From Bdellovibrionales bacterium (lineage in GTDB: Bacteria > Bdellovibrionota > Bdellovibrionia > Bdellovibrionales > JAGQZY01): a stretch of DNA of 64,000 nt. Below are positions 5,515 through 64,000 of the stretch, piece after piece. The notes under the pieces were generated by a model, which saw only the letters and a program-made list of their open reading frames with translations, did not search any database and was not told the DNA's origin. The position numbers and the translations under genes were made by a program. The stretch is from positions 5,617 to 69,616 of the forward strand of contig JAYUQP010000067.1 of assembly GCA_043757265.1 (NCBI GenBank), written 5' to 3'. Numbering within the stretch: position 1 is the first letter of the stretch; the number at the start of each line of letters is the position of its first letter.

Positions 5515-5548
5515 GCGACTAATCTTTTGAAATTAACTTACTACTTAC

Positions 5549-5800
5549 TTAAGCTAGACGCTTTTTGCTGATGACCATACGGTAAACTGCAAGAATTAAA
5601 ATTGCACCCACAACAGAGGCAATAAACCCAGCAGCTTCCATGTCGTTGTACCAACCCATGTTTCGCCCTAAAAGATTGGCGACGAACGCCCCGGCGATAC
5701 CTAGTAGTATTGTTACAATCCAACCGCCTGGATCTCGTCCCGGCATAATTGCTTTTGCAACTAGTCCTACTATTAATCCGATAAATACTGTCCAAATCAT
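5549..5800 (-). CDS. GlsB/YeaQ/YmgE family stress-response membrane protein
   Basis: IGLIVGLVAKAIMPGRDPGG...LLGIAGA...SVVGAILIL; AAGGAG RBS upstream. Confidence 0.92.
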   Translation of the reverse strand: MIWTVFIGLIVGLVAKAIMPGRDPGGWIVTILLGIAGAFVANLLGRNMGWYNDMEAAGFIASVVGAILILAVYRMVISKKRLA

Positions 5801-5994
5801 ATTTGCTCCTTTGTGAATGTCTAAGGCACAAGCCCTGAATAGATAAAGTGCACTAATAATGCCAAGTTATTTTACTACCTACAAGCATCTTACAGCAGTT
5901 TAGCAAAACCTCAGTAAGCCCAATGTTCAAATTTGCCCCGAGCTTATGAGTTCTTGAACGTGCACGATTTTTACAATGCGAATCTGCCTTATTA

Positions 5995-6186
5995 TTAACC
6001 ATAAGCCTTATCGAACTGAAATCCGCGCATCTTTCCCTCTTCGGAAGTAAACCGAAGTTGAATGGGGTTGCAGCACACTTCACAATCCTCGATGTAAACC
6101 TGTTCACCATCAGTTGAAAGATCTAGCAGCATTGAGATTTTTTCGAGGCAATATGGACATTTAAAAAACTTTTCGATTTCTTCCAT
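5995..6186 (-). CDS. CPXCG-motif cysteine-rich small protein
   Basis: CPYC...YIEDCEVCCNPI. Confidence 0.88.
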   Translation of the reverse strand: MEEIEKFFKCPYCLEKISMLLDLSTDGEQVYIEDCEVCCNPIQLRFTSEEGKMRGFQFDKAYG

Positions 6187-6224
6187 AGATTATCCTTACA
6201 AAAACGCGTCTGAAATTTCCTACG

Positions 6225-9395: not shown

Positions 9396-10885
9396 TGCAT
9401 TCCCCCAGTATAAAGTTGACCCTGCAAACGAAGACTGAGGCTTTCGTACAATGACTGAGCGCGAGCACGCTCCGCCCGCAAGTAATCTTGCTCGAAATTT
9501 AGCACATTAAATAGTGACGATCGACCCAGCCGAATTAGCCTTTTTTCTTCCTGCAATTTTTCGCGCTGAGCTTTCACAATCTGACCTAGAAGATCCAATC
9601 GATTTAATGCCTCTTGATGATTTGCAACGAGATCTGCCCATTGCAAGTCCTGATCTTTTTTCTTAAATTCGAGATCAGCATCTGCCGCCGCTTGCCGCAA
9701 ACGAGCACCCTCACGCGCGTCAGCTGATGCGCTGAGGTGAAGCGGTACCGTGAACTGCACACCGTAAGCATAGCTATTTCTGTTTGACGTGTTCGTGTTT
9801 GAAATCGCATCAGAAACACTAAGGTCATTTCTTCCATTCATCGCGTAGGATCCCACTAACGACACTGCGGGCTTGTTTCTTTCCTCAGCCATGATTGCCG
9901 CAGCCTTACTCAGCTTCGATTGCTCTTGAGCAATGGTCACATCCATGCGTTCGCCAGGGCGTTTTGCAGAAAGTGTTGTGCGATCAAAGCTATCTACGTC
10001 GATGGCTTTTAACGCCGGCACGGTCTCGTCAGGCGTCGAAAAGCGCCAGCGATTGAAATTTCTCTGAGCGCTGCGCTCTTCATCGAGTGCTAACTTGAGA
10101 TCGAGTTCATTAGCGATATACGCTGCTTTGGTTTGTAGAACATCCGATTTATCGCGCAGATCCAAGCGCGCCTTTTTTTGAATAAAATCAAAAAGCTCTT
10201 TCGAGCGAGCAAAGGCTTCCTTTTGCAGTCCCACCACCGACTGCGCCGTTGCCAGGCGCCAGTAAGCAAGCTGGGCGTTGATCAAAACTTCGGTTTGTTG
10301 AAGACTTGCAGCTTCGAGTTCCGCACGATTTTGCGCTAATACGACATCTCTTTGAGCTCGGGAAGAACGAGCGAACAGATTTTTCCAAAGAGGAATTTCC
10401 AAATCCACACTCGGAATCGCATTCCAATTTTCAAATGCCAGCGGGGTCGCACCAAAACCCGCATTAAAAAACTTCGTTTTATAAACGTTGTAGTTCAGCC
10501 GCATCTGTAAACCGAAGGCAAACTCTTGTGAGACGCCTAAATTGTAGGAGTTTGTGCGAATTTCGTCATAAAAAAAACCAGGTTGATTGGGAAAGCCAGC
10601 ATTGGAATCAACGGCTGCTTTTCCATGCAGCAGCGGTTTAAAATACAAATCCCCTTCACGCTGGGAGCCAGCGAAGCCAGCTTTTTTAAGTGTTGCGGCT
10701 TTGAACAATGGATTATTTTCTTTGACGCTTCCTAAGTAAACTTCAAGCGAAGTTGTTTTCGAGATGAGCTCCAAGGCTGTTTTCGAGGCTGGCTCGGCGG
10801 ACATAACGAATTGCGACGCGGAAAATATCAACAATGGTATTAGGAACATGAGACCTCTGCGTGATTTCATTTTTTGAATCTTCAA
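9392..10885 (-). CDS. TolC-family outer membrane efflux protein
   Basis: Signal peptide and two OEP-like helical repeats; 4-bp overlap with the RND gene. Confidence 0.85.
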   Translation of the reverse strand: MKIQKMKSRRGLMFLIPLLIFSASQFVMSAEPASKTALELISKTTSLEVYLGSVKENNPLFKAATLKKAGFAGSQREGDLYFKPLLHGKAAVDSNAGFPNQPGFFYDEIRTNSYNLGVSQEFAFGLQMRLNYNVYKTKFFNAGFGATPLAFENWNAIPSVDLEIPLWKNLFARSSRAQRDVVLAQNRAELEAASLQQTEVLINAQLAYWRLATAQSVVGLQKEAFARSKELFDFIQKKARLDLRDKSDVLQTKAAYIANELDLKLALDEERSAQRNFNRWRFSTPDETVPALKAIDVDSFDRTTLSAKRPGERMDVTIAQEQSKLSKAAAIMAEERNKPAVSLVGSYAMNGRNDLSVSDAISNTNTSNRNSYAYGVQFTVPLHLSASADAREGARLRQAAADADLEFKKKDQDLQWADLVANHQEALNRLDLLGQIVKAQREKLQEEKRLIRLGRSSLFNVLNFEQDYLRAERARAQSLYESLSLRLQGQLYTGGMQ

Positions 10886-11010
10886 TATAAAATGACTGGC
10901 GCGATCCAGGCAAGCAGCAAAAGGTTACATCCGGCTACCTAACAAGACTCTAAAAATGTTGGATGCCATGCCGCAAAAAGCATCACCAACGGCACCAAAA
11001 CCAGAAATCT

Positions 11011-11853
11011 TTAAAACCGCATTTTTTTTATGGTTTCTACAAAAACTTTCCCACGCTGAACGCTGCGAAATTCGTTTTTGTAAATCAGATAAATTTTATC
11101 AGAAAATGAGGGGGCCCCTTTTACGATGGCACACCGATGCCCTCCTGCCGATTGTAAAACTCTTTGAGGAAGTATTCCTCGCCCCGCGCCCCCAATCACT
11201 AACTTTGCGATAACATCCAAACTTGCAGATTCGATCAGCCGATACTTGTTTAATTTTTCTTTTTTCAATTTGTTTAGTATTGATTGCGATTGTAATAGGC
11301 TGGGCTCGATAAAAAGCACATCTAAATTTTTACACTCTGGCGCTTGCCACATTGTAACAATGTCGTCGCATAGGTGCCGCATGATGAGATCGGGATTCCG
11401 CGACGGGTTAACCACAATTCCTGCCTCAAGCTGACCCGCATTGACCAAATCTGTCATTTGTCTGGATAAGCCGTGCACCAATTGAAACTGTAAAAGAGGA
11501 TACTGCTCAAGCAATTGAGACAGAACGTCAGGAAGAATATACTGAGCCACAGCTGTATGACACCCCAAACGAATCAATCCTTGTGGTGCATTGATGCTTA
11601 AATGAACCGCGTCTTTGACCGACTTCCATTGCTCTAGAAGTGTTTGCGCCGAAAGAAGTAAGATTTCTCCAGCGGGAGTCAACTGCACACCCTTCTTGGA
11701 GCGAATCAGCAAGGTTACCTGCATGTCGGTTTCTATTTTTTTTATTGCATGCGACAGCGCCGGCTGGGTAATTCCTAAGCGCTCGGCGGCTCGGGTCACG
11801 TGACCCACTCGTGCAACTTCAGTAAAATATTTTAAGTCATCGGAGCTAATCAT
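11011..11853 (-). CDS. LysR-family transcriptional regulator
   Basis: LKYFTEVARVGHVTRAAERLGITQPALSHAIKKIE HTH; LTPAGE. Confidence 0.95.
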   Translation of the reverse strand: MISSDDLKYFTEVARVGHVTRAAERLGITQPALSHAIKKIETDMQVTLLIRSKKGVQLTPAGEILLLSAQTLLEQWKSVKDAVHLSINAPQGLIRLGCHTAVAQYILPDVLSQLLEQYPLLQFQLVHGLSRQMTDLVNAGQLEAGIVVNPSRNPDLIMRHLCDDIVTMWQAPECKNLDVLFIEPSLLQSQSILNKLKKEKLNKYRLIESASLDVIAKLVIGGAGRGILPQRVLQSAGGHRCAIVKGAPSFSDKIYLIYKNEFRSVQRGKVFVETIKKMRF

Positions 11854-11876
11854 TCATTCTGCTAATCATTCATTCT
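11845..11876. repeat. Perfect 16-bp tandem duplication over the LysR start codon
   Basis: GCTAATCATTCATTCT x2. Confidence 0.9.
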
Positions 11877-11973
11877 GCTTATCATAAAGCGTTTTTGAAT
11901 TCATTATATTTATACTCAAAAAAAAACTACTTTGTTTTTGCCGCATGGGGCGGTCAAATTAAGGGAGAACATA

Positions 11974-12495
11974 ATGAAGAGTTTGGTTTTTTTGAGTTTA
12001 ATTTTTTCTGTCGCTGCTGGTGCTGAATCTATTGATATTGACGAAATAGAGTTTCCGTTGGGCGATAAAGTGATAATTGTTGGAGATCAAACGTACACCG
12101 TCGACGTAGCCCTTAATCCACAAACTGTGCTGTGTTTAACTGGCGATTATGGAGCTAATTCCTTTAAAATCGCAGTTCCGCAAATTGACGATCTGACCTT
12201 TCTTGACCACACATCTCCCGGCGCACCCGGGCCGTGCATTAACGCCGGGCTTTGTAAAACCAAAGACAAACCGTGGGGGTCTACAACTGACGATCGGTTT
12301 TCGATCTTCCACGATCTGCATAAACCCGAAGAAACAGCTAAAATAAGAGTTGTTCGCAAAGAAGTCTTACACCTTTCGGGTGGCCGCTGTGTGCGCAATT
12401 ATATGGAACATGTGTCCTCAACAATTCGCGGCGTCGTGTTTCAACACGTAGCGAGCTTGCCCCTTGCCGAGACAAGTATTGAAAATTGTAAATAG
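11974..12495 (+). CDS. Secreted Cys-containing hypothetical protein
   Basis: GGGAG RBS, signal peptide MKSLVFLSLIFSVAAGA, five Cys. Divergent from LysR. Confidence 0.75.
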   Translation: MKSLVFLSLIFSVAAGAESIDIDEIEFPLGDKVIIVGDQTYTVDVALNPQTVLCLTGDYGANSFKIAVPQIDDLTFLDHTSPGAPGPCINAGLCKTKDKPWGSTTDDRFSIFHDLHKPEETAKIRVVRKEVLHLSGGRCVRNYMEHVSSTIRGVVFQHVASLPLAETSIENCK

Positions 12496-12507
12496 ATAAA
12501 ATTATCA

Positions 12508-12528
12508 AGCGGCTCGATGTGAGCCGCT
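12508..12528 (+). terminator. Hairpin after the secreted-protein gene
   Basis: AGCGGCTC-GATGT-GAGCCGCT. Confidence 0.55.
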
Positions 12529-12700
12529 CAGAATAAGCGACAACGCTTGACAGAAATAAGAAGGGAAGTTTTAAACTTTCCTTCTTATTTTTGTGCAGAT
12601 CTCAACCAAGCAGTATGGCCTGGTGGTAAGGACGCCTTCAGCGCTTCTTCACGAGCAGATCTCGTTCAGGTCACCGCATGTCTTCAATTACGTTTATGTG

Positions 12701-12780
12701 CGCCGTACCTTTTACGGCGTAGTTTTTACGGCGTAGCGCTTACGCCGTACCTTTTTAAACAGTACCTTTCGCGCGGCACC
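12701..12780. repeat. Cluster of short palindromic REP-like units (CGCCGTACCTTTT / TACGGCGTAG)
   Basis: Two hairpins (12701-12719, 12727-12749) and three GTACCTTT copies between convergent genes. Confidence 0.6.
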
Positions 12781-12786
12781 GTTTTC

Positions 12787-14319
12787 TTACTCTTGGATAA
12801 GCAGCGCTGGATCGCCCTGCAGTTGATACCACTCGAAGTTATCGACGATATCACTCTGACTGTCCCAGTTTGCTGCTAAATACATTTGCCCCGCGAACAA
12901 GGCCTCACCGAGATGTTTAAACTTTTTATCAGCGTGCTCAAAAGCTATTCCGCGTGCCATAACAGCTGGCGGATGCCATGAAATGTTCACGGTTCCACCG
13001 TAGTAAGCCACTGCACCATGCGCATCGTTGTTTGTTTGATCTGTGAATGCCGACCCCAAATATCCCGGAAGGAGTCGTCCATTGGCGCAGGCCACATCGA
13101 TGATTATGGGTTTAATTTGCGTCGCATTTTTTAAATTGGCGATGTCTTCTACATAGTACTCTTGGCGCAGACTTGGCCACGACGTTCCCGAACCGTGCCC
13201 CATGTAAAACAGCCACGCAGCGCCTGAGCTTAAGCTTTTGTTGAGCTCAGTCGGATTTGATTTCTGATCGCCCTGATAAAAGTGCGTGCTTACGTAGCCA
13301 AATGTTGAAGCAAGTTTTTCCTCAATGGAACGTACATATTCATCATCTGATGGGCCACTGCCTTCATCCGAGGCGATGCCGATCACGTGTGATACGCCTT
13401 TGGAGTTTTTTGTGCCCGATTTTTCAAACTCCACAGATTTTGCTAAGTTTTGGGCGACTTCGTCAGCCGTGGTCGCCACAATTCGTCCGTAAAAAACGTC
13501 GGGAACATAGTCACCGCTTCCGTCCAAAGTAAAATACTTAATGTCAGTCGTCGCCTGACCAGCCGAAGTAGGAACGTTATGCATTGGTAAAACCGTTTCA
13601 TCGCCCACCATCAACACAAAATCAATTCCGTTTTTTGCATAGTTGTCCGAGATGACTTTGGCTACGCCATCCAAAGTGATTTGCGGAGTTTCCAGAGCTT
13701 CGATGATGACATTGTAACCCTGTGCGGTTTTCCATTTTGAAAACTCAACCACGCCGCTCACCAGCCGTGCTGGAACGACAATCAGATAATCTTGATATTC
13801 TGCTCTAGCAACTGCGAATTCAACGGCGTTGTGCTCCACTTGCAAATCCTCAGCGACATAAATGGCGTTTTCGTTGGCATTGTATCTCGCAAGTGGAATA
13901 TCCACGCGTGAAATTGGTTGCCCACGCCACCAACCTAAAGATTGAACTGTGTGGCTTTGAGGTGAAGCATACGCGCGTGCGCTGTACTGAAACGATTTTT
14001 TAACGTCATCGGCACAACGACAGGGCTGTTGCTGCACAGGCATTGGCTTTAGTTTTTCTAGAACAAACGATCGCCGATAGTTGATCGACACTTGAATATC
14101 TTTCGGCGCCCCGTAGACAAGAAGACTTTTGACCGGCAATTCTGGCTCGCCCACTTTTTTCGAAAGTTCGAAACCTCGCACTTTGAGCTTCGAAAAGCCC
14201 CGAGCTGTCGAAGCATCGCTGCGTTCTACATTGATCGCGTCTTGCGATATCCCCAAATTCAATTTTGCGGCATTGGCTTCAAACGAAAACAACAACCCCA
14301 ACAAGATCCATCTACCCAT
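12787..14319 (-). CDS. Peptidase C25 (gingipain-like) cysteine protease with propeptide
   Basis: Signal peptide; GEPELPV propeptide motif; FVLMVGD, PDVFYGRI, YMGHGS (His), DVACANG (Cys), LQGDPAL. Confidence 0.9.
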   Translation of the reverse strand: MGRWILLGLLFSFEANAAKLNLGISQDAINVERSDASTARGFSKLKVRGFELSKKVGEPELPVKSLLVYGAPKDIQVSINYRRSFVLEKLKPMPVQQQPCRCADDVKKSFQYSARAYASPQSHTVQSLGWWRGQPISRVDIPLARYNANENAIYVAEDLQVEHNAVEFAVARAEYQDYLIVVPARLVSGVVEFSKWKTAQGYNVIIEALETPQITLDGVAKVISDNYAKNGIDFVLMVGDETVLPMHNVPTSAGQATTDIKYFTLDGSGDYVPDVFYGRIVATTADEVAQNLAKSVEFEKSGTKNSKGVSHVIGIASDEGSGPSDDEYVRSIEEKLASTFGYVSTHFYQGDQKSNPTELNKSLSSGAAWLFYMGHGSGTSWPSLRQEYYVEDIANLKNATQIKPIIIDVACANGRLLPGYLGSAFTDQTNNDAHGAVAYYGGTVNISWHPPAVMARGIAFEHADKKFKHLGEALFAGQMYLAANWDSQSDIVDNFEWYQLQGDPALLIQE

Positions 14320-53944: not shown

Positions 53945-54021
<77 letters not shown>

Positions 54022-54064
54022 ATTTATACGAGTCCTTTAGTAAATCCAATACTTTAGCAGAAAA

Positions 54065-54099
54065 CGTCGTAGGTTATACGTCGTAGGCGTCGTAGGTTC
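54065..54099 (+). repeat. Three CGTCGTAGG direct repeats, candidate integrase arm-type sites
   Basis: Copies at 54065, 54079 and 54088, between the tRNA 3' end and the integrase. Confidence 0.75.
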
Positions 54100-54150
54100 G
54101 GCCAGGGTTTGTCCTTCATTTGGTTTAATTTTTAACCGATAGGACAAGCA

Positions 54151-55287
54151 ATGAGATTATTAAAGCGAGAATTAAAATACTCCGGTTCAAATTCAGGAAG
54201 TTATTACGTTCGGGCACGCAAATCTGGGTGGTCTCTCTACCATCAAACTTTCAAGAATAATAAGAAGACAGACACTTTAGTTAATCCACTGGCTTTCATC
54301 GAATTAGGGTTCATTTTTACGTGGAATCTAGAGGAAGCTAGGAAACGTTCTTCGATACTTAATAAAGAGAAAACACTTCACCAAGCAAAGGCGCGAAACG
54401 CAGCTTCAGTTTTGGACAGGATTGTAACCGTCGACAGTTTATTATTCCCCGAGGAAACCATTAGGCTGTTTCTCGAACGTACCGAACGGGAAAATGAAGG
54501 AACCGAATACCATCTTAAAAAGGTGTTTAGTCACTTCCTAAAAGTTCAGCGTCTCTGTAAAGATCTAGAAATGCTTCCCCATCAATACAAAGAAAACGAA
54601 AAACTTATATATAAGTGGTTCGCTTCTCAAAAAGTTTCATTAGATTACACGCAGAAGCTTATAGCTCTACTGAACAAATGGGGTACCTTTGTATCTCGTA
54701 AAGATGGAAGGTTCTTCGAACCGATTGCGCCTGTTCGTGGTTTGTCTAGACAACGAATCAGGGAATCTCATGAGGATAAGAAAGGTGTGCGCACCGAATC
54801 TGAAGTAATCTCCCCTGATATGTTAGAATTAAAAAAGACAAAATTGTCCCAAGAAAATTACAACTTTTTGTATATCACCGTGTGGTTTGGCTTAAGACCG
54901 TTCGAATTAAAGAGTATTAAAAACATAGATGTAAGAAGAAATACAGAGGGGCTAGAGTTCCTGGTAGTTTATCAGTCCAAACTGGTGACTTTGGAGAAGT
55001 CCAAGCGTTACAAGGCAATTCCAATACTACTCAAAGAGCAAAAGAAGGGGCTAGAAATAATCACTTCTGGTAAATTGAAAGCGCCTATATATAAAAAGAT
55101 GAGAGAAGTTTTTGGTGAAGGATACGGACTTTACGCAGGACGTAAGGGATTCGCCGATTTAATGCTGAATAAAGGTTATGCAATCGAAGATATAAGCCTG
55201 TGGCTTGGGCACTCAAGTATCGAAACAACGTGGTCGCACTACAAGAATAAGAATGTATTGAGCCTACCTTCTCCTAAGAAAAAATAA
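54151..55287 (+). CDS. Tyrosine recombinase / integrase
   Basis: WFGLRPFEL (Arg I), YAGRKG (Arg II), WLGHSSIETTWSHY (His, Tyr). Confidence 0.9.
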   Translation: MRLLKRELKYSGSNSGSYYVRARKSGWSLYHQTFKNNKKTDTLVNPLAFIELGFIFTWNLEEARKRSSILNKEKTLHQAKARNAASVLDRIVTVDSLLFPEETIRLFLERTERENEGTEYHLKKVFSHFLKVQRLCKDLEMLPHQYKENEKLIYKWFASQKVSLDYTQKLIALLNKWGTFVSRKDGRFFEPIAPVRGLSRQRIRESHEDKKGVRTESEVISPDMLELKKTKLSQENYNFLYITVWFGLRPFELKSIKNIDVRRNTEGLEFLVVYQSKLVTLEKSKRYKAIPILLKEQKKGLEIITSGKLKAPIYKKMREVFGEGYGLYAGRKGFADLMLNKGYAIEDISLWLGHSSIETTWSHYKNKNVLSLPSPKKK

Positions 55288-55373
55288 CTTCAATATCCAA
55301 AAATTCAAACTACAGGGAGCCGCCCACTCCCCTATTCCATCATTTATAAACTAAATGTTATTAAGGCAAAGTA

Positions 55374-57554
55374 ATGTCAGAATCAATTAAAGTCAGTATA
55401 CAGGTAGATGGCGAAGCCGCTCGAGTTCTAAGCGATTTTACTAAAAAGTCGGAGCTAGCTGACAGGTCCCTCAAAAAGATGGGGGACACAGGTAAGTCTA
55501 CGTTCAATGATATCTCTGTAGGTATTGGCAAATCCGTTGGTGTGTTTGATATATTTGCTGGTAATTTATCGGCGAATCTTGTTGTAGGTGCCTTCAATCT
55601 TATGAAGGACGCCGCTGGTGCTTTATTCCAAACACTCCTAGTTGACGGTGTAAAAGCTGCCGCTGAAGAAGAAGCTGCATTAAACTCACTCAACGTTGCC
55701 TTAGCATTATCCGGTCAATACAGCGAAGAATCGAGTAGAAAACTGCAGGCGTTTGCTGAAGGCATACAGGCAACCACCACCGTTTCAGACGACGCAGTTC
55801 TAGCAAACCTTTCATTACTATCAAGCTTAACCCGTTTAGATACCGACGGCTTACAGAGAGCTCAAACCGCAGCAATAAACTTATCCGCAGCGTTGGGTAA
55901 AGATTTAGGAACGGCAACGGAGATAGTTGCTAAAGCTTCCAATGGAACGTTTACCGCATTAAACAAACTTGGAATCAGTATAGAAAAAGGCAGAAATGAA
56001 GCGGAGACGTTCGAAAACGTAATGTCCTCTCTTGAAACGCGTTTTGGTGGAACAGCACAAGCCCAAGTTGGTACCTATACCGGTTCTCTAGGACAGTTAC
56101 AAAATACGTTTAGTGATCTTCAAGAAACAATCGGCAACACCATCGTACAAAACCCCGTGGTCATAGCTGTGTTTCAAGAACTGGCACGCATATTCACTAT
56201 AACAAAAGGTGAAATCAACGGCAATCTGCTAGCCTTAAAAGAATTAGTCGGTAAGGGAATCATCATCGCAATTGACGCGGCTATTATCGCAACTGCTACA
56301 TTTGACACCCTTGCACGCTCGGTACAGTTTTTACATGGCATAACCGTTGGAATTAGAACGCCGTTAATTGGGATAGCTGCAGCTTATACTCTTTTTACTG
56401 AAGGCGCTAAAGCCGCCGGAGAACAACTTAAGAAAACTTATGGGGACGCACTTGAAAATGTTCAAGCTTTCGGTGCTAAAGGCGATGGTGCTCTAAGGGC
56501 GATCACAGATAACTTAGCTAATTTAAAGGGCGCAGCTGAAGCTAGTTTTGGTAAAATCGGAGAGAATGCCGTAAGTTCCGCATCTAAACTCAAAGGAACT
56601 GTTTTTGCTACAAACGAGTTAACTGAAGCAGAGAAAAAAAGAGCGGAAGAACTTGGTAAATTCGCATTGAAGCTAGCTGAAACAGCATCGGACGAAACTG
56701 CACAGAACGACGCAAAACTTTCGAACTTACGCGCTTATCTCGATCAAAGTTATATTCTCGAATCAGAAGCGGATTCCCTCAAATTTGAGGAGAAGTTAGC
56801 TCTAGAACAAAACTACTACATACAAAAGAATGAAGCCATCGACGCACATTTGTTAGCGGAACAAACTAAAGTAGACGAAGCACTAGCACTAAAACAAATA
56901 TCTCAAGAGCAACACGATCTTGCAATTCTACAATTAAAGAAGAACGCAGATGCACGACTTACCGCTTCAGCCACCGAGTTTGCAACTAAAGAAAAAGCAA
57001 TTATTGAAAAGAAAAAGAAATACGAAGAATTGACGCAAAAAGAGAAGGTTGCGAATCTTCAGAGTACGTTTAATCAGATTGCAACTCTTTCCAATTCTAG
57101 TAATAAAACTTTAGCTGCTATTGGAAAAACAGCGGCTATCGCCAACGCGACGATTGATGGCTATGCAGCTGTACAAAAAGCACTAGCCTCAGCCCCTCCC
57201 CCATTTAACTTTGCACTGGCTGGTTTAGTTGGCGTTGCCACTGCTGCTAATGTTTCTAAAATTGCTGGCGTTAACTTCGAACAAGGCGGTATCGTTCCTG
57301 GTTCTTCTTTTACCGGCGATAGGGTTTCTGCAAATGTTAACTCTGGCGAAATGATTCTAAACAGACAGCAGCAATCCACGCTATTCAATGTGGCAAACGG
57401 CGCTGGGTCTGGTGGTTCTGGTATTATTAACAGCCTGGTAGAAGAAGTCCGCGCCCTTAAAGGGTTAATGAACCAACCGCTAATTGTAAACATTGAAGGA
57501 CGAGAAATATTCAACGTAACTCGTAACCAACTGGCTTCCGGTCGGAGTTTTTAA
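55374..57554 (+). CDS. Phage tail tape measure protein
   Basis: 726 aa, Ala-rich and helical; LSAALGKDL..A, ALNKLGI, KTAAIANATIDGYAAVQKALASAPPP, FEQGGIVPG..GDRV.ANVNSGEMILN. Confidence 0.88.
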   Translation: MSESIKVSIQVDGEAARVLSDFTKKSELADRSLKKMGDTGKSTFNDISVGIGKSVGVFDIFAGNLSANLVVGAFNLMKDAAGALFQTLLVDGVKAAAEEEAALNSLNVALALSGQYSEESSRKLQAFAEGIQATTTVSDDAVLANLSLLSSLTRLDTDGLQRAQTAAINLSAALGKDLGTATEIVAKASNGTFTALNKLGISIEKGRNEAETFENVMSSLETRFGGTAQAQVGTYTGSLGQLQNTFSDLQETIGNTIVQNPVVIAVFQELARIFTITKGEINGNLLALKELVGKGIIIAIDAAIIATATFDTLARSVQFLHGITVGIRTPLIGIAAAYTLFTEGAKAAGEQLKKTYGDALENVQAFGAKGDGALRAITDNLANLKGAAEASFGKIGENAVSSASKLKGTVFATNELTEAEKKRAEELGKFALKLAETASDETAQNDAKLSNLRAYLDQSYILESEADSLKFEEKLALEQNYYIQKNEAIDAHLLAEQTKVDEALALKQISQEQHDLAILQLKKNADARLTASATEFATKEKAIIEKKKKYEELTQKEKVANLQSTFNQIATLSNSSNKTLAAIGKTAAIANATIDGYAAVQKALASAPPPFNFALAGLVGVATAANVSKIAGVNFEQGGIVPGSSFTGDRVSANVNSGEMILNRQQQSTLFNVANGAGSGGSGIINSLVEEVRALKGLMNQPLIVNIEGREIFNVTRNQLASGRSF

Positions 57555-57671
57555 TACTTTTATTTTAATTGTGCAGACCATTATGTAAGATATCTTTGCG
57601 CTGTACATTATTTAAACTTCTTTGAGAAACTTACCTTTCGTTCTACATTCTCCTCTGAAAAAGGGGTGTGT

Positions 57672-57899
57672 ATGTCGGTTGTCTCAATAGGGTTACTTCG
57701 AACGATACTTGGTTGGCTGTACAATGTTCTTTCAATGCCGGGAAGGGTTGCTGAACTTTCGAAGGTAACTAGGAATCAGGAAAACCGTGTGAAATTTTGT
57801 CCAAACTGCGATACGCGAATGAAGGTTACTACAGCATTTCCTCAGCAGTGGAACTACAAATGCAATCCGTGCGATAAAAGATTTATATATAACTACTAG
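57672..57899 (+). CDS. Small zinc-ribbon protein; start uncertain
   Basis: CPNC...CNPC; converges exactly on the next gene. Confidence 0.55.
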   Translation: MSVVSIGLLRTILGWLYNVLSMPGRVAELSKVTRNQENRVKFCPNCDTRMKVTTAFPQQWNYKCNPCDKRFIYNY

Positions 57900-57900
57900 A

Positions 57901-58104
57901 TTACTTCTGTTTTGCTAACCAATCCTCTAGGGCTTCTGCAACTGCGGACTTAATCTTCATTTCTCGGCGTGCAACTACCTTTAAGAATTGTGCCAATGTG
58001 TCGTCTTCGACTTCGAAGGTGTGTTTAGTGGTTTTGACTGCCCGTTTTACAATGTAGCCCATCTTCTCAAGTTCTTTAATTTGCTTCTGTGTCTTTTGGT
58101 TCAT
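57901..58104 (-). CDS. Small ribbon-helix-helix-like DNA-binding protein, candidate repressor
   Basis: KHTFEV strand followed by two helices (DTLAQFLKVVARRE, IKSAVAEALEDWL). Only minus-strand gene of the element, divergent from the next operon. Confidence 0.65.
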   Translation of the reverse strand: MNQKTQKQIKELEKMGYIVKRAVKTTKHTFEVEDDTLAQFLKVVARREMKIKSAVAEALEDWLAKQK

Positions 58105-58271
58105 GGTTGGATAATACAGTATTAAGTACACTAATAAACCCCACTAGTGTGATTTTTGGACCAATCTAAGACGTTTTGCTCTTTTTTTTGATTATTTTAC
58201 TGTTTTGGCTTTAGTCCCACACTTTTGACCCGATAAGAGTTATGTAACATTAACTAACAAGGAGATAAAAT

Positions 58272-58409
58272 ATGAAAGCGCCAACCAAACAACAATTAGA
58301 AAAAAGAGACCACCTACGCGAATTGATTTTACCTAAAGTTTTTGCTCGAGTTTTCGCAGAAGGCGAACGTCGTAAGGTTTTAAAGGTTAAGAAGGATAAA
58401 ACTAAATAA
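58272..58409 (+). CDS. 45-aa basic protein, not in the ORF track
   Basis: AAGGAG RBS; MKAPTKQQLEKRDHLRELILPKVFARVFAEGERRKVLKVKKDKTK; TAATG overlap with the next gene. Confidence 0.7.
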   Translation: MKAPTKQQLEKRDHLRELILPKVFARVFAEGERRKVLKVKKDKTK

Positions 58410-58681
58410 TGAAATACCTCATACTACCCTTCCTCATTTTAACGGCCTGTGGCCAGAGCGAAGACGCCGCAGGTCTGTCTGAATTCAATTACAACTGCCA
58501 GAAGGATGAAGACCTAAGCGGTGGGGGTTTTAACGTATATGCGTGCGCGGAGAGAACGACGCAAGTAACATGCGAAGTTATCCAAAGTACTAACGAATAC
58601 TTTAACGATACGGATTGTTTAGATTTTAGTTTTGTTTCTTTTGAGAACTACTTACGAGATGTCCAAGCTAATAATGAATAG
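58409..58681 (+). CDS. Small Cys-rich lipoprotein
   Basis: MKYLILPFLILTAC lipobox plus four further Cys. Confidence 0.75.
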   Translation: MKYLILPFLILTACGQSEDAAGLSEFNYNCQKDEDLSGGGFNVYACAERTTQVTCEVIQSTNEYFNDTDCLDFSFVSFENYLRDVQANNE

Positions 58682-58964
58682 AATATTATGGTTATTCCTT
58701 ATAACAAATGCCTGTGGCGACGAATCTGTATCACAGAACGCAGCTGCCCACGCTAACGCTACAAGCTATACCTGTAGGTACGAAACCACAGGGCTTGTTC
58801 AAGTATGTATGAACTCAAGTAATTGTAACTCGTACACCGCAGATACATACATCTGCACCAGCGATATCGGAGCCACATGTAGAGCTAGCTATGATTTATA
58901 CGCAAACAATCTTTTAATCACCAGCTGTAATCCGCAAGTTATACCTGCTGAATCTAACTTTTAG
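58674..58964 (+). CDS. Small Cys-rich putative lipoprotein
   Basis: MNRILWLFLITNAC followed by six further Cys; overlaps the previous gene. Confidence 0.7.
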   Translation: MNRILWLFLITNACGDESVSQNAAAHANATSYTCRYETTGLVQVCMNSSNCNSYTADTYICTSDIGATCRASYDLYANNLLITSCNPQVIPAESNF

Positions 58965-59102
58965 TTTAGTTCAAGTCACTTGAAAAATCTAAAGCCCATA
59001 CCTTCAGTTCTTTGAGGCGGTGCCAACCCCAAATACAACAAACGTATGAAACTAAAAGAGTTAAATTGTTCAAATTACCTAACCTAACCAAAGGAATATC
59101 TA

Positions 59103-59285
59103 ATGAAAGAAGTTAAAGACAAAAACTGCTTCTTCTTAAAAATAAAACCCGGAGAAGCCTATTCACTAAGAGAAGGAATCGAAATTTATAACGATTCTAA
59201 AATAAACGTAAGATTGCGTATCTTAACCCCACTAACTGAAACCACTAAAACGGAAGAACCGAAAAATGAAAAACCAACAAAATAA
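59103..59285 (+). CDS. Small hypothetical protein
   Basis: AAGGA RBS, 60 aa, overlaps the next ORF. Confidence 0.6.
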   Translation: MKEVKDKNCFFLKIKPGEAYSLREGIEIYNDSKINVRLRILTPLTETTKTEEPKNEKPTK

Positions 59286-60093
59286 AAATCCCACCGCCTT
59301 TGGAAGAACTACAGCAACATTAAACAATGAAGCGGTTATCGACCTTCAAAAATTCACTGCAATAGCTGATATGCCAGGAGACTGCGAACCGTGGGCCTCT
59401 CTAAAAGAACTTTACAGCAGCGATTCTTTCATAGACCGGGCTACGGCTTGTATTCTTAACGGAGTTGAAAGTTCCAGGAAGAATCCGTTTGCGCTAAGTA
59501 GTCGCCTTCTAGATAGATACTTCCAAGCGGACCCCAACATCAATTACAAGGTCAGTGGTTCAAGGTATAAGATGCTAATCAACCAACTATTAGCCGTTTC
59601 CACTAAAGCCGGTACTCTTCGCTGCATTCAACCACCTAAAAAAGGTACTTCCGGGCAGTCAAACATTGCCGGTAGATACGAAGTTAGTTCTCCGGCAGTG
59701 CTTGCTACTATGCCTTGGATATCTAGTTCACAAGGGTGTTCACAAGGTACTTCACAACCTATGTTACAGAGTAGAGTAGAGCTGAGCGGAGCTCAGCAGA
59801 GTACAGTAGAGTTGAATACAAAGACTTCTTTAACCACTGAGGTAGTAAGTGTAAACGCGGACCTTATTGGGTCCGCTTCATGCGACTTTAGAAAACCACT
59901 TGAAATTCACTACTGCCACACCGTAGCCGAAGCACTGGCTGAGTATTACGAGGCTTTACTGGAGAATGATAAGGTGGGTTTGAGATTGGAACGTGCGCAC
60001 AATGCTAAACGAATCTTCTTCCCCGATTACACGTTTGAAATAGCTTGGAACGATGTAGTGGTTAAAGAGCCCAAGAATCCTGCCGACTTTTAA
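59266..60093 (+). CDS. Putative replication initiator with internal iteron-like repeats
   Basis: Folded N-terminal region, then a low-complexity linker encoded by 12-bp repeats (59726-59773) and AGAGT runs. This layout is typical of lambda O-like initiators; no family motif recognised. Confidence 0.5.
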   Translation: MKNQQNKNPTAFGRTTATLNNEAVIDLQKFTAIADMPGDCEPWASLKELYSSDSFIDRATACILNGVESSRKNPFALSSRLLDRYFQADPNINYKVSGSRYKMLINQLLAVSTKAGTLRCIQPPKKGTSGQSNIAGRYEVSSPAVLATMPWISSSQGCSQGTSQPMLQSRVELSGAQQSTVELNTKTSLTTEVVSVNADLIGSASCDFRKPLEIHYCHTVAEALAEYYEALLENDKVGLRLERAHNAKRIFFPDYTFEIAWNDVVVKEPKNPADF

Positions 60094-60361
60094 TCTGACC
60101 ATGCCCAGTCCCCCAAAAACTGGGGTTTTCGACCTCTAAAAAGCACCTCAAAATATTTTTTTGGTCCCTATTCTTGGACTGTAACTTGGGGTATTTGCGA
60201 AACCCTTAGTAGTTTCAGGGGGCTGTCCCACGTTGCTTATATATAGAGGGTTTGCAAACGCCAAAGTGGCAGATCTTAGACGCCCAGCCTGTCCCGCTGG
60301 CGTTAGTTATAGAGAGACTAAAAATCAAAAGTTGTACCCAACCCATATACCCGGAGTTTGA

Positions 60362-60652
60362 ATGCATACGAATTTAAGCGCCCTTGCATCCTTAGTGATT
60401 AAAGAGCGTGCGTTGCTTGTCGTGGAAAGAATTTGCACATGCTACTACCTAGAGGTGGGTTCATCCGACCTAACAATCAAGGGGCTTTCACGAGTGTTAA
60501 ACATATCAGCGCGCACGCTCAACAGGGTTATTCCACGCCTCCTCTCCCAAGGTATCTTGGTGAAAGAAGAGACTGAGGACTCTAGCACCACAACGCTTAA
60601 GGTTCAGGAACCACAACACTGGAGACTTAGCCGAAGCACACGTATCCGGTAA
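60362..60652 (+). CDS. Winged helix-turn-helix protein
   Basis: LTIKGLSRVLNISARTLNRVIPRLLSQGILVK. Confidence 0.75.
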   Translation: MHTNLSALASLVIKERALLVVERICTCYYLEVGSSDLTIKGLSRVLNISARTLNRVIPRLLSQGILVKEETEDSSTTTLKVQEPQHWRLSRSTRIR

Positions 60653-61206
60653 CGGTGGTGGGCATCACATCTGCAGTCGCGGGTTCTACTTGGATTATTT
60701 TTCGCCGGAATAATTTTAGAAATAATAAATCAAACTCGAATCCATTCGTTCCCCTCGTAGGGGGCAGTTACTAGGTTCTTCCTAGCCGCTTTTAAATACA
60801 ACGGGTAGGCGACGTGCGTCCTGACACTAGTTATTAGTAAAAATACTTAGGTTACTGGTGGTCGAGAATAATTTATAATTATAAAAAGTTCCTTCATTAG
60901 CGCGAATTTCCTTGGGAATTAGAGTTTACCTTCACCAACTGTTACCATATCGAGCGTTAACTCCGTGCACCCGGGAAGTTTATGGTTAGTGCTATCACAA
61001 GATAAATCAAAGATTGGTGATTCGTCACCAGTAGCTGTGTACGTCCACTACGTTCTACACAGAACCGGCAGGAGTTCCGACCCGTGGCCGGTTTTATATA
61101 TCAAAAAATGCTGTTCGAAGTTTCGACATATTGTATTCGGATAGAGAGGACAAGGGGCTTGTTACCCCGGTGGTCCTCACCTTTTTAAATAACGATAGGA
61201 ATATAA

Positions 61207-63030
61207 ATGCAAAAGACAAAACGCACGGCAGAGACAAATGTTCTCCGCGCTGAGATAGACAATTTAACCATTAGAGCAGAATCGCGCTCAGTGAACTTAA
61301 CCTGGACAACGGGATACAAAGGTTTGCGCTCGAGCTACGACGGCCCTTTTTACGAGGAGCTCAGTTTAGACCCCTCTGCCGTTGACCTCACTCACCTCGC
61401 TGCCGGAGCCCCTTTACTCAAATCACACGATGCCACAAACCTAGATTCGGTTGTAGGAGTTGTAGAGAGGGTCTGGTTAAAGGACAATCAAGGTAAAGCC
61501 ACCGTAAGGTTTTCAGACGATCTAGAGTCCGAAAAATTATTCCAAAAAGTAAAGTCAGGAATAATTCGCTCAGTATCCGTCGGTTATTCAGTTGAGCAGT
61601 ACACTGACGTGAGTAAAGAAGGGGACGAAATTCCCACTCTTCGTGCCACACGTTGGACTCCTAGGGAGCTGAGTGCTGTGAGCATTCCGTTCGACCCCGG
61701 AGCCCAATTCTACCGTAATCAAGAAAACAATAAATCAAAACCCGACTTCAATTTTGAGGTCCCAATTATTCAGGAGAAAATAGAAATGAATATTAAAGAT
61801 AACGCCGAACGTACTCGTCAGTCAGAAATTCGCCTAGCCGTCCGCGCAGCTAAACTAGAAGAAATATTCGCAGACCAGCTTTGCGATTCCGATGTAACAG
61901 CTGACGATGCACGTAAGCAAATTATTGCTAAACTTGCTGACGTTAAAGCTGCTACTTCAGTAGAAAACACCGTGAGAGTTGAAGTTGGAGACTCAAGCCA
62001 AGACAAAAAGCGCGCGGGTCTTGTAGACGCAATTGCACATCGTTTGGACAACACGTACAAACCGAATGCAGATGCGCGATTATTTTTAAATAGAACTTTT
62101 CCGTCTATGGTTGAACAATATTTGGGGCGCAAATTGTCGGAGGCCTCCGGCCCGATGATTACCCGCGCGATGTCTACTTCCGACGTTCCGCTAATTTTGG
62201 CTGCATCCGCTGAAAAAAGCATCGCTAATATCTACAATGCTCAGCCTCGTAGTTTTGAATCGTGGGTAAAAAAAGATGTTCTTCGTAATTACAAAACTCA
62301 CTCACGTGTAGCTAGCTCTCAATTTTCCGATCTCGCAGAAAAAGCAGAAAATGGAGAATTCACTTACTCTTTTATCTCTGAAGAAGGCGAAAGTGTATCT
62401 ATCAAACGATACGGACGTATCCTAGGTTTAACTAAAGAAGCTATGGTAAACGACGACCTTGGTGCCCTTGGGCAAGTGATCGCAGAGGCCGGAGCTGCAG
62501 CAGCAAGATTAGAAAACCGATTGGTTTATTCTAAGCTGGCCGCAAACGGCGTGATGTCTGATTCTGTGGCGTTATTCCACGGGACACATTCTAACTTAGG
62601 TACAGCCGGGGCAATTTCAGAAACTACATTAGAAGAGCTCTCTAAATCTATGATGAAACAAAAAAGCGTAGGCGGCGTTGAAAATTTAAATCTAATTCCC
62701 CGCTTTCTTATCTGTGGTCCAGACAATTTAGTTAGTGCGAAAAAGATGTTAGCTCAGATCAGCCCGACTCAATCGAGTTCAAGTAATCCATTTTCTGGTG
62801 CTTACGAAATAGTATGCGATGCTGAAATCTCAAACAAAAATTGGTATCTTGCAGCGGACCCCGCTTCTGTAGACACTGTGACGCTTTATCGCTTACAGGG
62901 AGAAGAGACCCCACGCGTTTATATGAAGGCAAACGACTTCAACACGGGAGACTTCGCACTTAAGATCGAACACTCATGCGGAGCCGGTATCACAAATTAT
63001 CGTGGCCTTGCAAAAAACCCGTTCGTCTAA
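61207..63030 (+). CDS. Prohead protease-major capsid protein fusion (HK97 fold, Mu gpT-like capsid domain)
   Basis: N-terminal PLLKSH..VVGVV, SVSVGY, RELSAVSIPFD protease. C-terminal RAMSTSD.P.IL, ENGEF, RYGR...T.EAMVNDDLG, LFHGTHSNL, NLIPRFLI, WYLAADP, YRGL.KN. Confidence 0.92.
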   Translation: MQKTKRTAETNVLRAEIDNLTIRAESRSVNLTWTTGYKGLRSSYDGPFYEELSLDPSAVDLTHLAAGAPLLKSHDATNLDSVVGVVERVWLKDNQGKATVRFSDDLESEKLFQKVKSGIIRSVSVGYSVEQYTDVSKEGDEIPTLRATRWTPRELSAVSIPFDPGAQFYRNQENNKSKPDFNFEVPIIQEKIEMNIKDNAERTRQSEIRLAVRAAKLEEIFADQLCDSDVTADDARKQIIAKLADVKAATSVENTVRVEVGDSSQDKKRAGLVDAIAHRLDNTYKPNADARLFLNRTFPSMVEQYLGRKLSEASGPMITRAMSTSDVPLILAASAEKSIANIYNAQPRSFESWVKKDVLRNYKTHSRVASSQFSDLAEKAENGEFTYSFISEEGESVSIKRYGRILGLTKEAMVNDDLGALGQVIAEAGAAAARLENRLVYSKLAANGVMSDSVALFHGTHSNLGTAGAISETTLEELSKSMMKQKSVGGVENLNLIPRFLICGPDNLVSAKKMLAQISPTQSSSSNPFSGAYEIVCDAEISNKNWYLAADPASVDTVTLYRLQGEETPRVYMKANDFNTGDFALKIEHSCGAGITNYRGLAKNPFV

Positions 63031-63047
63031 AGTACACGAATTAATCA

Positions 63048-63070
63048 AGGGCCGCATTCAGCGGCTCTTT
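63048..63070 (+). terminator. Hairpin plus T-tract after the capsid gene
   Basis: AGGGCCGC-ATTCA-GCGGCTCT-TT. Confidence 0.55.
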
Positions 63071-63096
63071 AATCTAAACTTAACGGAGAAATAAAT

Positions 63097-63420
63097 ATGA
63101 AAAATTTCATTCAAGATGGAACACGCATGAGACACACAGCTACGGCTGTTGCTGCTTCAGGTAGTGTAATACTAGTTGGCAATCGTGTCGGCGTTGCCAC
63201 TGCCGATATCGCAATTGGTGCGACAGGTGATTTAGCGATGCTAGGTGTGTTCAGTCTTCCTAAAGCTTCTGCTGATAACTTTGTTATTGGTGCCCAAGTA
63301 TACTGGGACAACACATCGAAAGTTATGACTTCAGTCACAACTGGTAACACACTTGCCGGATACGTTGCTGAGCCTGCTTCTGCGGCTACCACTAGTGCTA
63401 AAATTTGCATTAATGCCTAA
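63097..63420 (+). CDS. DUF2190 family capsid decoration/cement protein
   Basis: MKNFIQDG...SG..I.VG..VGVA..DIA.G..G....GVF.LPK...G..VYWD; GGAG RBS; directly after the capsid gene. Confidence 0.88.
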   Translation: MKNFIQDGTRMRHTATAVAASGSVILVGNRVGVATADIAIGATGDLAMLGVFSLPKASADNFVIGAQVYWDNTSKVMTSVTTGNTLAGYVAEPASAATTSAKICINA

Positions 63421-63479
63421 ACATTTGGACTTCTCTTAGAGGAGTTCAATTCTCTTATCCAAAAACACAGGAAAATTAA

Positions 63480-63902
63480 GTGGAAGAAATACAAATTCAA
63501 ATTAACAATTATATTTTCAATATCGTACTTACAAACACTCATAGAGAAGAAGTAGTAAACGTCTCCTCAAAGATAAAAGAGCTCCCCGGGCTAGACGAAA
63601 CTACACAGAATCTTACACAGCACTTAATACTCATTAAATACATGGTGAAGTCGATGAAAGATGAAAACAATAACCACTTTCGGTTGGAGTTCGATAAAGA
63701 TTCTAGCCTCTCGTTAGAATCCGTTAGAGACCTACTCAGCCTAGCGGAAGATCCTGCACAACAAGACACCCTTGCTAAACTATATCTGATTTTAATCCAG
63801 GTACTCGCTGGGTCAAACGGTCGTTCGTTCATTGACCAACACGGCAATGCTTTGGCTGGCGTGAAGATTATTGAATCCAATCGTAACCCCACCTTCCACT
63901 AA
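63480..63902 (+). CDS. Hypothetical phage protein, possible tail assembly chaperone
   Basis: 140 aa, acidic, with KYMVKSMKDE...LEFD...VRDLL. Size and composition are TAC-like; no firm motif. Confidence 0.4.
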   Translation: MEEIQIQINNYIFNIVLTNTHREEVVNVSSKIKELPGLDETTQNLTQHLILIKYMVKSMKDENNNHFRLEFDKDSSLSLESVRDLLSLAEDPAQQDTLAKLYLILIQVLAGSNGRSFIDQHGNALAGVKIIESNRNPTFH

Positions 63903-63970
63903 AACTAATTTCATAAATTATACTGATACAACCCTAAACATTAAATCTACACCAACAAACAGGAGCAATT

Positions 63971-64000
63971 ATGGACGCATCTGCATTTTTTCAAGGTACC
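63971..64000 (+). CDS. Start of the next element gene (MDASAFFQGT...), truncated by the window
   Basis: AGGAG RBS and ATG at 63971. Confidence 0.6.
   Translation, partial: MDASAFFQGT

Follow-up and report, generated by a model that had tools for sequence, protein, structure and literature searches.

The 64,000-nucleotide stretch analysed here (hereafter the window) corresponds to positions 5,617 to 69,616 of contig JAYUQP010000067.1 of a Bdellovibrionales bacterium (assembly GCA_043757265.1) and carries at its right-hand end a compact integrated element of 10,595 bp. The predicted virion genes of this element encode a major capsid protein, a head decoration protein, a tail assembly chaperone (TAC) and a tape measure protein (TMP), and nothing else. 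With a probability of roughly 0.6, the element is interpreted as a helper-dependent satellite of a lambda-like siphovirus family, which would build its own shell and place its own chaperone and tape measure in chimeric tails. The assembly comprises 2.98 Mb in 133 contigs and is 96% complete. The window is C67:5617-69616 in the contig numbering used below; contig C67 ends 670 bp beyond the window, and coordinates in this short extension are given as window-equivalent positions.

The left junction lies at an intact tRNA-Met(CAT) gene (53945..54021, plus strand), detected by ARAGORN and by the Rfam tRNA model (64 bits), with the host GTPase gene hflX directly upstream. Two features of the tRNA, the C1xA72 mismatch and the GGG/CCC pairs of the anticodon stem, are taken to mark bacterial initiator tRNAs, and the gene is treated as the initiator-type insertion target. 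The longest exact repeat of the locus, a 35-bp attachment (att) core, forms attL at 53991..54025 (plus strand) and recurs as an exact copy, attR, at window-equivalent positions 64551-64585 (C67 70167-70201), 551 bp past the window end. Only two copies of this 35-mer occur in the whole assembly. Since an exact repeat of the tRNA 3' end is found within the 670 bp past the window, the element can be regarded as complete at 10,595 bp including both att cores; as attR lies inside the last 670 bp of C67, no continuation on another contig is needed. The preliminary description of this DNA had proposed a search for attR to the right and had named a complete prophage of more than 30 kb as a refuting outcome; what is found is a 10.6-kb element. 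The element contains 15 open reading frames (ORFs), all intact, with no room for further genes, and has a GC content of 42%, compared with about 45% in the rest of the window, of which positions 1-53900 presumably hold host genes. Its junctions show that insertion took place at the 3' end of the initiator-type tRNA-Met and left the tRNA regenerated.

The head genes of the element are clustered. A 607-aa protein (61207..63030, plus strand) is predicted to be a fusion of an S78 prohead protease, a scaffold and the major capsid protein (MCP), with matches to phrog_4523 (E=4e-159), PF25209 (E=3e-38) and PF04586; its Pfam matches are limited to Phage_capsid_4, Mu gpT and S78. It is 45% identical to the MCP of L164, a complete siphovirus-type phage locus used below for reference. 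The protease histidine and serine (H74 and S124) and two acidic positions are kept in L164 and in 14 small elements of the kind described below (all but L142). The next gene (63097..63420, plus strand) encodes a 107-aa head decoration or cement protein (PF09956, Phage_cement_2/DUF2190, E=4e-27; phrog_122, E=2e-28). It is followed by p140 (63480..63902, plus strand), a homolog of the first tail assembly chaperone (TAC1), recognised with E=4.8e-12 by a profile made from 29 phage ORFs located between the tube and TMP genes. The "TAC-like" label first given to this ORF is thus borne out.

The tape measure gene (55374..57554, plus strand) lies near the left end of the element. Its 726-aa product matches PHROG TMP families (E=1e-25), has a C-terminal motif conserved in the alignment of relatives, and is 41% identical over its full length to the 740-aa TMP of L164, which follows tube, TAC and TAC genes. 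All nine full-length or near-full-length relatives in IMG/VR (L252-L260) are likewise encoded after a tube gene and a first chaperone ORF, and a second chaperone ORF precedes the TMP gene in eight of them (it was not detected in L256). This consistent position of its relatives in phages indicates that the 726-aa protein is a genuine siphovirus TMP. The gene list and order originally reported from the tRNA to the TAC-like ORF are all present, and the frames are open.

To what extent the other virion genes are represented was examined at two levels. A tblastn search of the whole assembly with 18 L164 proteins returned only the capsid, decoration and tape measure genes of the element. Profiles built from fetched phage loci for the other 15 proteins of this set were compared with 575 stop-to-stop ORFs (at least 30 aa) of the element and its two nearest relatives, L084 and L085. 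In these ORFs, the profiles for terS, terL, portal, Hc1, terminator, tube, second chaperone (TAC2) and distal-tail proteins found nothing below E=0.1. There were only two real matches: that of TAC1 to p140, and that of the gpW-position profile to an 87-aa ORF of L085 (E=4.6e-7), which lies upstream of the L085 capsid gene. Pfam and PHROG scans of all ORFs gave no matches to sid, psu, delta or alpha. The tblastn and profile results agree with the original claim that the element has its own capsid, decoration and tape measure genes without terminase, portal or tail tube, and the portal, terminase, connector, tube, tip and lysis genes are all absent from its predicted gene set.

The nearest relatives of both the capsid fusion and the TMP are about 45% identical and are mostly found on metagenomic contigs of 35-47 kb; the lengths of several contigs recur in both match lists. 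In GenBank phages the capsid relatives do not exceed about 32% identity, and the relatives of the TMP are confined to C-terminal fragments. In L164, L252, L083 and L107 the gene order is terS-terL-W-portal-capsid fusion-decoration-Hc1-terminator-tube-TAC-TAC-TMP-distal tail. This family, on contigs of about 32-47 kb, is lambda-like, with a GpA-type terL (phrog_15), a 72-aa ORF in the gpW position and a 395-aa tube protein. As a baseline, 151 fetched capsid loci had 4 kb or more of upstream sequence; a portal gene lies within 5 kb in 130 of them and terL within 8 kb in 129. The integrase, repressor, capsid, decoration, TAC and TMP genes of the element all have homologs in this one phage family, and compared with the phage order its integrase and repressor genes are inverted relative to the structural genes.

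The capsid fusion was found without a nearby portal gene at 19 loci. One of these, the IMG/VR contig L029, has an insert of about 6 kb (3686-9947) that places the portal gene 6 kb upstream of the capsid fusion, and is otherwise a standard phage of the terL-W-portal...capsid-decoration type; 12 are att-bounded elements, and six are left over (L097, L128, L153, L184, L185 and L186). In all, 14 further small elements with a capsid fusion and without portal or terL were identified (12 att-bounded, one circular and one cut by the contig end), from Bdellovibrionota, Rhizobiales, Methylococcales, Gallionella and metagenomes. The 12 att-bounded elements, which include L085, are 8.6-12.0 kb long and occupy different tRNA genes, with exact repeats of the tRNA 3' end of 16-49 bp. 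Their named records are from Ochrobactrum, Brucella sp., Rhizobium (two), Shinella, Agrobacterium and Methylobacter, the rest being metagenomic. Both capsid and TMP are encoded in 9 of the 15 small elements. The element is therefore recurrent, one of a scattered but widespread set of similar small elements as predicted from their gene content, and its synteny is conserved, as would not be the case for the one-off deleted remnant that had been named as the competing outcome.

The two nearest sister elements, L084 and L085, are in metagenome-assembled genomes (MAGs) of Pseudobdellovibrionaceae. ORFs flanking them are 52-60% identical to this genome, compared with 27-54% for proteobacterial controls, values that are not decisive for the host. 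In L085 a tRNA-Leu gene is followed by the integrase gene, and an 18-bp att repeat bounds 10.7 kb containing a homolog of the putative repressor p76m, an ORF resembling p275 (both described below), the capsid fusion and small ORFs. L084 is an 11,016-bp contig, cut at the left, with the order p76m homolog (minus strand), p275-like ORF, capsid, decoration, ORFs of 121 and 94 aa and TMP, followed by a host LysR fragment. Written as an excised circle, the main element would read capsid-decoration-TAC-p164-attP-integrase-TMP. This circularised order is near that of the phages and is that of L084 with the att/integrase cassette moved, which explains why the integrase gene stands next to the TMP gene.

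L142, from a Gallionella MAG, is a contig of 10,013 bp whose ends overlap by 141 bp, which makes it a circle of about 9.9 kb. Its genes are those for an excisionase-like regulator, an O-like replication initiator, a protease-capsid fusion, a TMP and an integrase, and nothing in it resembles portal or terminase. Six Rhizobiales elements have in common a protein of 784-980 aa, the L116 version of which matches PF10145 (E=1e-14) and phrog_28 TMP (E=2e-33); L116 also has an excisionase and a replication initiator. Elements of about 9 kb encode D5_N/DUF5906, Prim-Pol or DUF3987 replication proteins and have no TMP-sized ORF. In L116 a weak terS-like ORF (5790-6431; phrog_57, E=1.6e-6) adjoins the TMP gene and belongs to a cluster, c3, found in five Rhizobiales elements. 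This ORF suggests that these relatives may redirect helper packaging in the fashion of phage-inducible chromosomal islands (PICIs); no counterpart was recognised in the main element.

A single-protein capsid scan of genome contigs gave nothing, and relatives were found by an alignment-based scan. The capsid was present in none of 25 family-level genomes and in 4 of 400 other genomes sampled from the phylum, three of them with ordinary prophages and one odd. Two further loci were recorded in the course of these searches. In a genome of the same order, L251 (G326:C32, 9673-12280, minus strand) has consecutive genes for a terS-like protein, an MCP that consists of the capsid domain and lacks the protease part, and Hc1, without intervening terL or portal; this may be a reduced element of another kind or a remnant. 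In L153 (Paracoccus cavernae, 9899-13114) the capsid match covers residues 237-604 only and is followed by Hc1 and tail-terminator homologs; there is no portal or terL in the 10 kb upstream, and a tRNA-Arg gene lies at 5105-5181.

A FastTree phylogeny was computed from 193 capsid sequences, retained from 233 after removal of near-duplicates (by 5-mer sharing) and of fragments shorter than 480 aa. Three clades (3, 6 and 12 leaves; support 100 in each case) consist of portal-less loci alone. The main element, L084 and L085 occur as single leaves among phage capsids, and at least six state changes are required. A quick IQ-TREE analysis of 51 sequences grouped the main element with L084 (SH-aLRT 88) and placed L085 elsewhere. 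These topologies may be read as repeated, successful reduction of lambda-like phages to one minimal design, with some lineages having persisted and radiated.

Recombination functions are predicted at the left end of the element. The tyrosine integrase (378 aa, 54151..55287, plus strand) matches phrog_1 (E=3e-9) and weakly PF00589, contains tyrosine-recombinase motifs, and is 33% identical to the L085 integrase, the GLRP..E, LGH and HY motifs being common to both. Three copies of CGTCGTAGG (54065..54096, plus strand), which match the left edge of the att core, sit 40-70 bp inside attL, and a fourth is at the edge of attR. Four exact copies in the 11.3-kb locus compare with 0.07 expected, and it is plausible that these are putative recombinase-binding sites, with integrase and excision factor as the candidate ligands. 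At the other side of the element, the end of C67 (L001 11269-11287) is a 19-nt perfect inverted copy of the tRNA T-arm, itself also part of attR, and the copy is seen again at C21 238-257. Here a second tRNA gene probably lies on the minus strand, which would explain the assembly break.

Between the TMP gene and the replication region lies a set of small genes. The zinc-ribbon protein p77 (57666..57899, plus strand) is defined by two CxxC pairs (CPNC...CNPC) and has no family match above noise in Pfam or PHROG. The 76-aa p76m (57901..58131, minus strand) is a candidate for a small repressor of the ribbon-helix-helix (RHH) type, kept in the sister elements and in phage L252, with identities of 55% to an L084 ORF, 44% to an L085 ORF and 34% to an L252 ORF. 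It had no Pfam match and a search of the PDB gave nothing below E=0.19; an RHH fold is inferred. In L252 the p76m-like ORF is convergent with an integrase fragment related to the integrase of the element, which suggests that the lysogeny module comes from the same phage world. A basic 45-aa ORF, p45 (58272..58409, plus strand), assigned by position only, is divergent from p76m and is a possible Cro-like partner; a 34-nt imperfect inverted repeat lies in the region between the two. Two paralogous lipoprotein genes follow on the plus strand, p90 (58409-58681; lipobox LTAC) and p110 (58632-58964). The signal peptide of p110 is paralogous to that of p90, as reflected in repeated signal-peptide DNA, and p110 probably starts at an internal ATG near 58674; a part for these lipoproteins in superinfection exclusion is a matter of speculation.

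The putative replication region begins with the open frame p60 (60 aa, 59103..59285, plus strand), which has no Pfam or PHROG family match and is weakly similar to a 68-aa ORF of L084 (blastp E=0.002). It is followed by p275 (59266..60093, plus strand), a family-specific protein in the position of a replication initiator, with AGTGGTTAAAGA repeats within and after its gene. The N-terminal part of about 130 aa is common to a 318-aa ORF of L084 and a 344-aa ORF of L085, and an atlas search gave a weak lead to the N-terminus of lambda O and to HTH_36. Five of the 12 matches to AGTGGTTAAAGA in the window (at most two mismatches) fall within 59108-60405, a span of 1.3 kb, and two of these five are exact. 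The iterons attributed to this ORF in the preliminary description have only modest support, as the 12 matches in the whole window compare with 6.0 by chance. Next is p96 (60362..60652, plus strand), a winged helix-turn-helix protein by sub-threshold matches to HTH_24/MarR_2 and a match to phrog_1835 (E=8e-4).

A 555-bp non-coding stretch (60653..61206, no strand), in which no ORF has a family match, separates p96 from the capsid gene. It has no Rfam match and no DNA similarity to phages or sister elements, and speculatively it is a candidate for a late promoter, a packaging site or both. Rfam found only tRNA in the locus, and promoter and terminator scans were not above shuffled sequences. The last ORF before attR is the orphan p164 (164 aa, plus strand), which starts at 63971 and ends at window-equivalent position 64465. 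Pfam and PHROG gave no match to it, atlas matches were all below 0.82, and the AlphaFold2 single-sequence model, with a mean pLDDT of 35.8, was unusable. A G/GT-type frameshift joining p140 to p164 was considered and rejected, as the frame is closed.

Every proposed genomic test that was run supports the satellite interpretation, and from the gene content we infer dependence on an L164-like helper phage for the missing virion functions. Several results count against this view. A co-resident helper prophage had been suggested, and none emerged: besides the tblastn result, the terL models phrog_15 and PF03354 had no match in the 96%-complete assembly, and no helper-type phage was found there. 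No terS was recognised in the element by profile, and a blastn-short comparison of four non-coding pieces with phage terS-upstream regions and sister elements, aimed at cos or pac sites, gave only chance matches of 11-15 nt. No Rep homology could be demonstrated for p275, which found no match in the PDB either alone or as a three-sequence profile and has no similarity to the O-like initiator of L142. For p164 no homolog was present among 5.8 billion or 1.84 billion representative proteins. In L085 a RES/Xre toxin-antitoxin pair (4316-5677) lies between integrase and repressor, where the main element has TMP and p77. The TMP is therefore not universal and is dispensable for some members, and the integrase-repressor gap seems cargo-like, behaving as a cargo slot. 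The branches starred in the 51-sequence tree force at least two origins within the subgroup of the main element, L084 and L085, whose terminal branches are long (0.69-0.83; median 0.27) and could reflect relaxed constraint. Finally, contigs assembled from four sequencing runs of one sediment-metagenome study, two of the runs possibly being the source, showed no excision, circular junction, attB or attP. These contigs end within the att repeats, as 31-mers would predict, and the depths of element and flank are equal (27.8 vs 26 and 26.1 vs 24.6). Contigs cannot show rare excision, so that the absent junctions are not evidence against mobility.

Under the satellite interpretation, the small RHH-like repressor p76m would keep the element silent. 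With a helper phage of the related family growing in the cell, the element would excise and replicate, probably via p275 and its repeats. The single chain of protease, scaffold and capsid, together with the decoration protein, would form the element's own shell on a helper portal, and this shell, probably small and fitting about 10 kb, would be filled by the helper terminase. The TAC and TMP of the element would replace those of the helper, resulting in chimeric tails in which tube, connectors and tip come from the helper, from which lysis would also be borrowed. The 15 elements (8.6-12.0 kb) are about a quarter of the length of the contigs on which the closest capsid relatives lie (41.6-47.8 kb), and this narrow size range suggests a small shell, of T=3 or T=4 if P4 and SaPI are a guide. 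The alternative is that about four element copies fill a helper-sized head. The TMP, at 726 aa against 740 aa in the phage, is expected to preserve tail length. The initial notion that the element supplies the size-determining virion parts is therefore apt only in part, as the tail ruler probably leaves tail length unchanged. An own TMP might instead, as a speculation, serve compatibility with, or evasion of, TMP-directed exclusion or defence.

A broader version of this model may be offered tentatively. The 15 elements would constitute a phylum-spanning satellite family outside the published families compared here, characterised by a one-gene head unit with decoration protein, by an own TMP in most members and by a TAC in the main element. 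The particle would be chimeric in both head and tail, the satellite contributing the shell and the tail core that enters the recipient envelope, and the helper the portal, motor, connectors, tube and tip; a TMP of unchanged length would serve to evade TMP-targeted exclusion or defence and not to alter tail length.

The most serious competing explanation, although an unlikely one, is that the element is a defective prophage remnant, a lambda-like prophage that has lost its terS-portal, connectors-tube and distal tail-lysis blocks and whose survivors are immobile. The presence in one phage family of homologs of its integrase, repressor and structural genes is in line with such an origin, as are the interleaving of the main element, L084 and L085 capsids with phage capsids on long branches, the lack of observed excision and the lack of a helper in the assembly. 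However, none of the 15 frames is interrupted and the two att copies are identical. The inverted integrase and repressor show that the gene order is rearranged relative to the phages, which argues that this is not a simple deletion derivative. Decay would also have to account for 15 elements of the same logic within the narrow range of 8.6-12.0 kb in several phyla, for three element-only capsid clades, for the circular L142 and for the retained catalytic residues.

It is also rather improbable that the locus is an integrative island in which the capsid, chaperone and TMP copies act mainly against phages, poisoning or misdirecting the head and tail assembly of related incoming phages, and are not used for its own transfer. 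Functions interfering with assembly, tail assembly included, are described for satellites and PICIs (PMC11364771; PLE11 Rta). The two lipoproteins and the toxin-antitoxin pair of L085 look like defence or exclusion cargo, and structural-protein copies diverged to about 45% identity could be dominant-negative. This explanation leaves unaccounted for the tight 8.6-12 kb range, the replication modules, the integrases and att sites at many tRNA genes and the circular L142; moreover, in known satellites interference does not preclude own transfer.

Very improbable is an autonomous minimal HK97-fold virus of the "twilight-zone" type, lacking portal, terminase and conventional tail: integrase-bearing HK97 genomes of about 8.75 kb without portal or tail genes are reported, with autonomy raised beside the satellite option (PMC13669383), but the element has retained a TAC and a full-length TMP, proteins known to act only inside a tube that it does not encode, and its capsid, with 45% identity to the one of a complete siphovirus, is of the typical phage type with a fused protease. 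To our knowledge, no packaging mechanism is known for portal-less double-stranded DNA HK97 shells, which weighs further against an autonomous mini virus.

Satellites shape phage-host dynamics and gene flow, and nearly all characterised ones are from few model hosts. The present analysis adds a case with defined boundaries from a sediment bacterium, together with 14 relatives, some in genomes of culturable Rhizobiales (Agrobacterium, Rhizobium, Shinella and Ochrobactrum) and one in a Methylobacter genome. If the satellite interpretation is true, the chimeric-tail strategy of PLE would be widespread, the fused protease-scaffold-capsid gene would allow a satellite to take over head morphogenesis with one gene, and at least some portal-less small HK97 genomes from metagenomes would be satellites of ordinary siphoviruses and not viruses of a new type. 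All three predictions can be tested directly in the culturable hosts. Agrobacterium sp. GD03872 carries both L103, an 11.7-kb capsid-plus-TMP element at tRNA-Cys, and L130, a standard terS-terL-portal-capsid prophage of the same broad family. Members are also carried by Shinella pollutisoli KCTC 52677 (L088), Rhizobium puerariae TBRC 4938 (L089) and Rhizobium panacihumi KCTC 62017 (L104). In GD03872 the capsids of L103 and L130 are only about 31% identical, and L130 was not accepted as a clear helper for L103; the strain is a culturable system in which helper dependence can be tested.

Among known satellites, PLEs (phage-inducible chromosomal island-like elements) have no major capsid protein of their own and use a scaffold to remodel the capsids of ICP1. 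In Vibrio cholerae, the TMP and TAC of PLE are reported to be incorporated into chimeric tails from which the ICP1 TMP is excluded, and deletion of tmp in PLE lowers transduction by 96-99.9% (Nature 2026, PMC12987554). As described, PLE resembles the element in having genes for its own TMP and TAC and an integrase; it depends on a helper for most virion genes, as is predicted for the element. It differs in its myovirus helper, its baseplate hub and its integration outside tRNA genes, whereas the present element belongs with a siphovirus-type family and has a protease-capsid fusion and a decoration protein.

The EPIPs of Mycolicibacterium are satellites reported to have MCP and TMP and smaller heads (bioRxiv Dec 2025, PMC12822802). 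In the published account they are likewise small, have of their defining genes only MCP and TMP in common with the element, and have a serine integrase, terS, a head-to-tail adaptor, a stopper, a separate scaffold and Actinomycetota hosts. Unlike EPIPs, the element has a tyrosine integrase at a tRNA gene, a fused protease-scaffold-capsid gene, a decoration protein and a TAC, and no terS, adaptor or stopper was detected in it by profiles.

The SatelliteFinder model of capsid-forming PICIs (cf-PICIs) is defined by components that include terL, terS, portal, head-tail adaptor and connector, with at least 9 of 11 core components present and tail genes forbidden (PMC10085698), and some cf-PICIs are said to carry putative tmp genes (PMC12987554, Extended Data Fig. 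10 legend). According to these descriptions, cf-PICIs are likewise integrated and have their own capsid and prohead protease, in some cases merged. Unlike them, the element has no terL, terS, portal or connectors and does have tail genes (TMP and TAC). Judged by the published model definitions, it fits none of the four SatelliteFinder families.

P4 is an integrated satellite of about 11 kb that uses the terminase, portal and tail of its helper, has the decoration function Psu and forms a small capsid. With its external scaffold, Sid, it resizes the capsid protein of its helper P2; it has neither a capsid nor a TMP gene. The element is similar to P4 in size and integration, and differs in having capsid and TMP genes and no sid, psu, delta or alpha matches. 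Of other groups, VEIMEs are described as carrying no capsid genes (PMC9618062), and MulchRoom and MiniFlayer as carrying terS, terL, portal and capsid (PMC10690885).

The portal-less mini HK97 genomes of the "twilight zone", for which a satellite lifestyle is proposed, have a tail gene in 23 of 536 cases (Nat Commun Oct 2026, PMC13669383). At 10.6 kb the element falls below the limit of about 11.6 kb given for that group, and it shares the HK97 capsid gene, the integrase, a replication gene (putative in the element) and the lack of portal, terminase and tube. The group is characterised as gut-derived, with genomes of about 8.75 kb, encapsulin-like capsids, a separate scaffold and, in the dominant group, no tail genes. 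The element, unlike these, has a protease-fusion capsid tied to a lambda-like siphovirus family, a decoration protein, a TAC and a TMP, and no encapsulin match in Pfam.

In the literature searched, there was no description of tRNA-integrated elements combining a protease-capsid fusion with a TMP and no portal; members may be included in Table S2 of PMC13669383 or in Extended Data Fig. 10 of PMC12987554. The novelty first attributed to this satellite has to be narrowed, since TMP-bearing satellites (PLE and EPIP) and portal-less small HK97 genomes are already in print. The element is thus a variant of the known phage satellites, with a distinctive putative hijack module of capsid and TMP.

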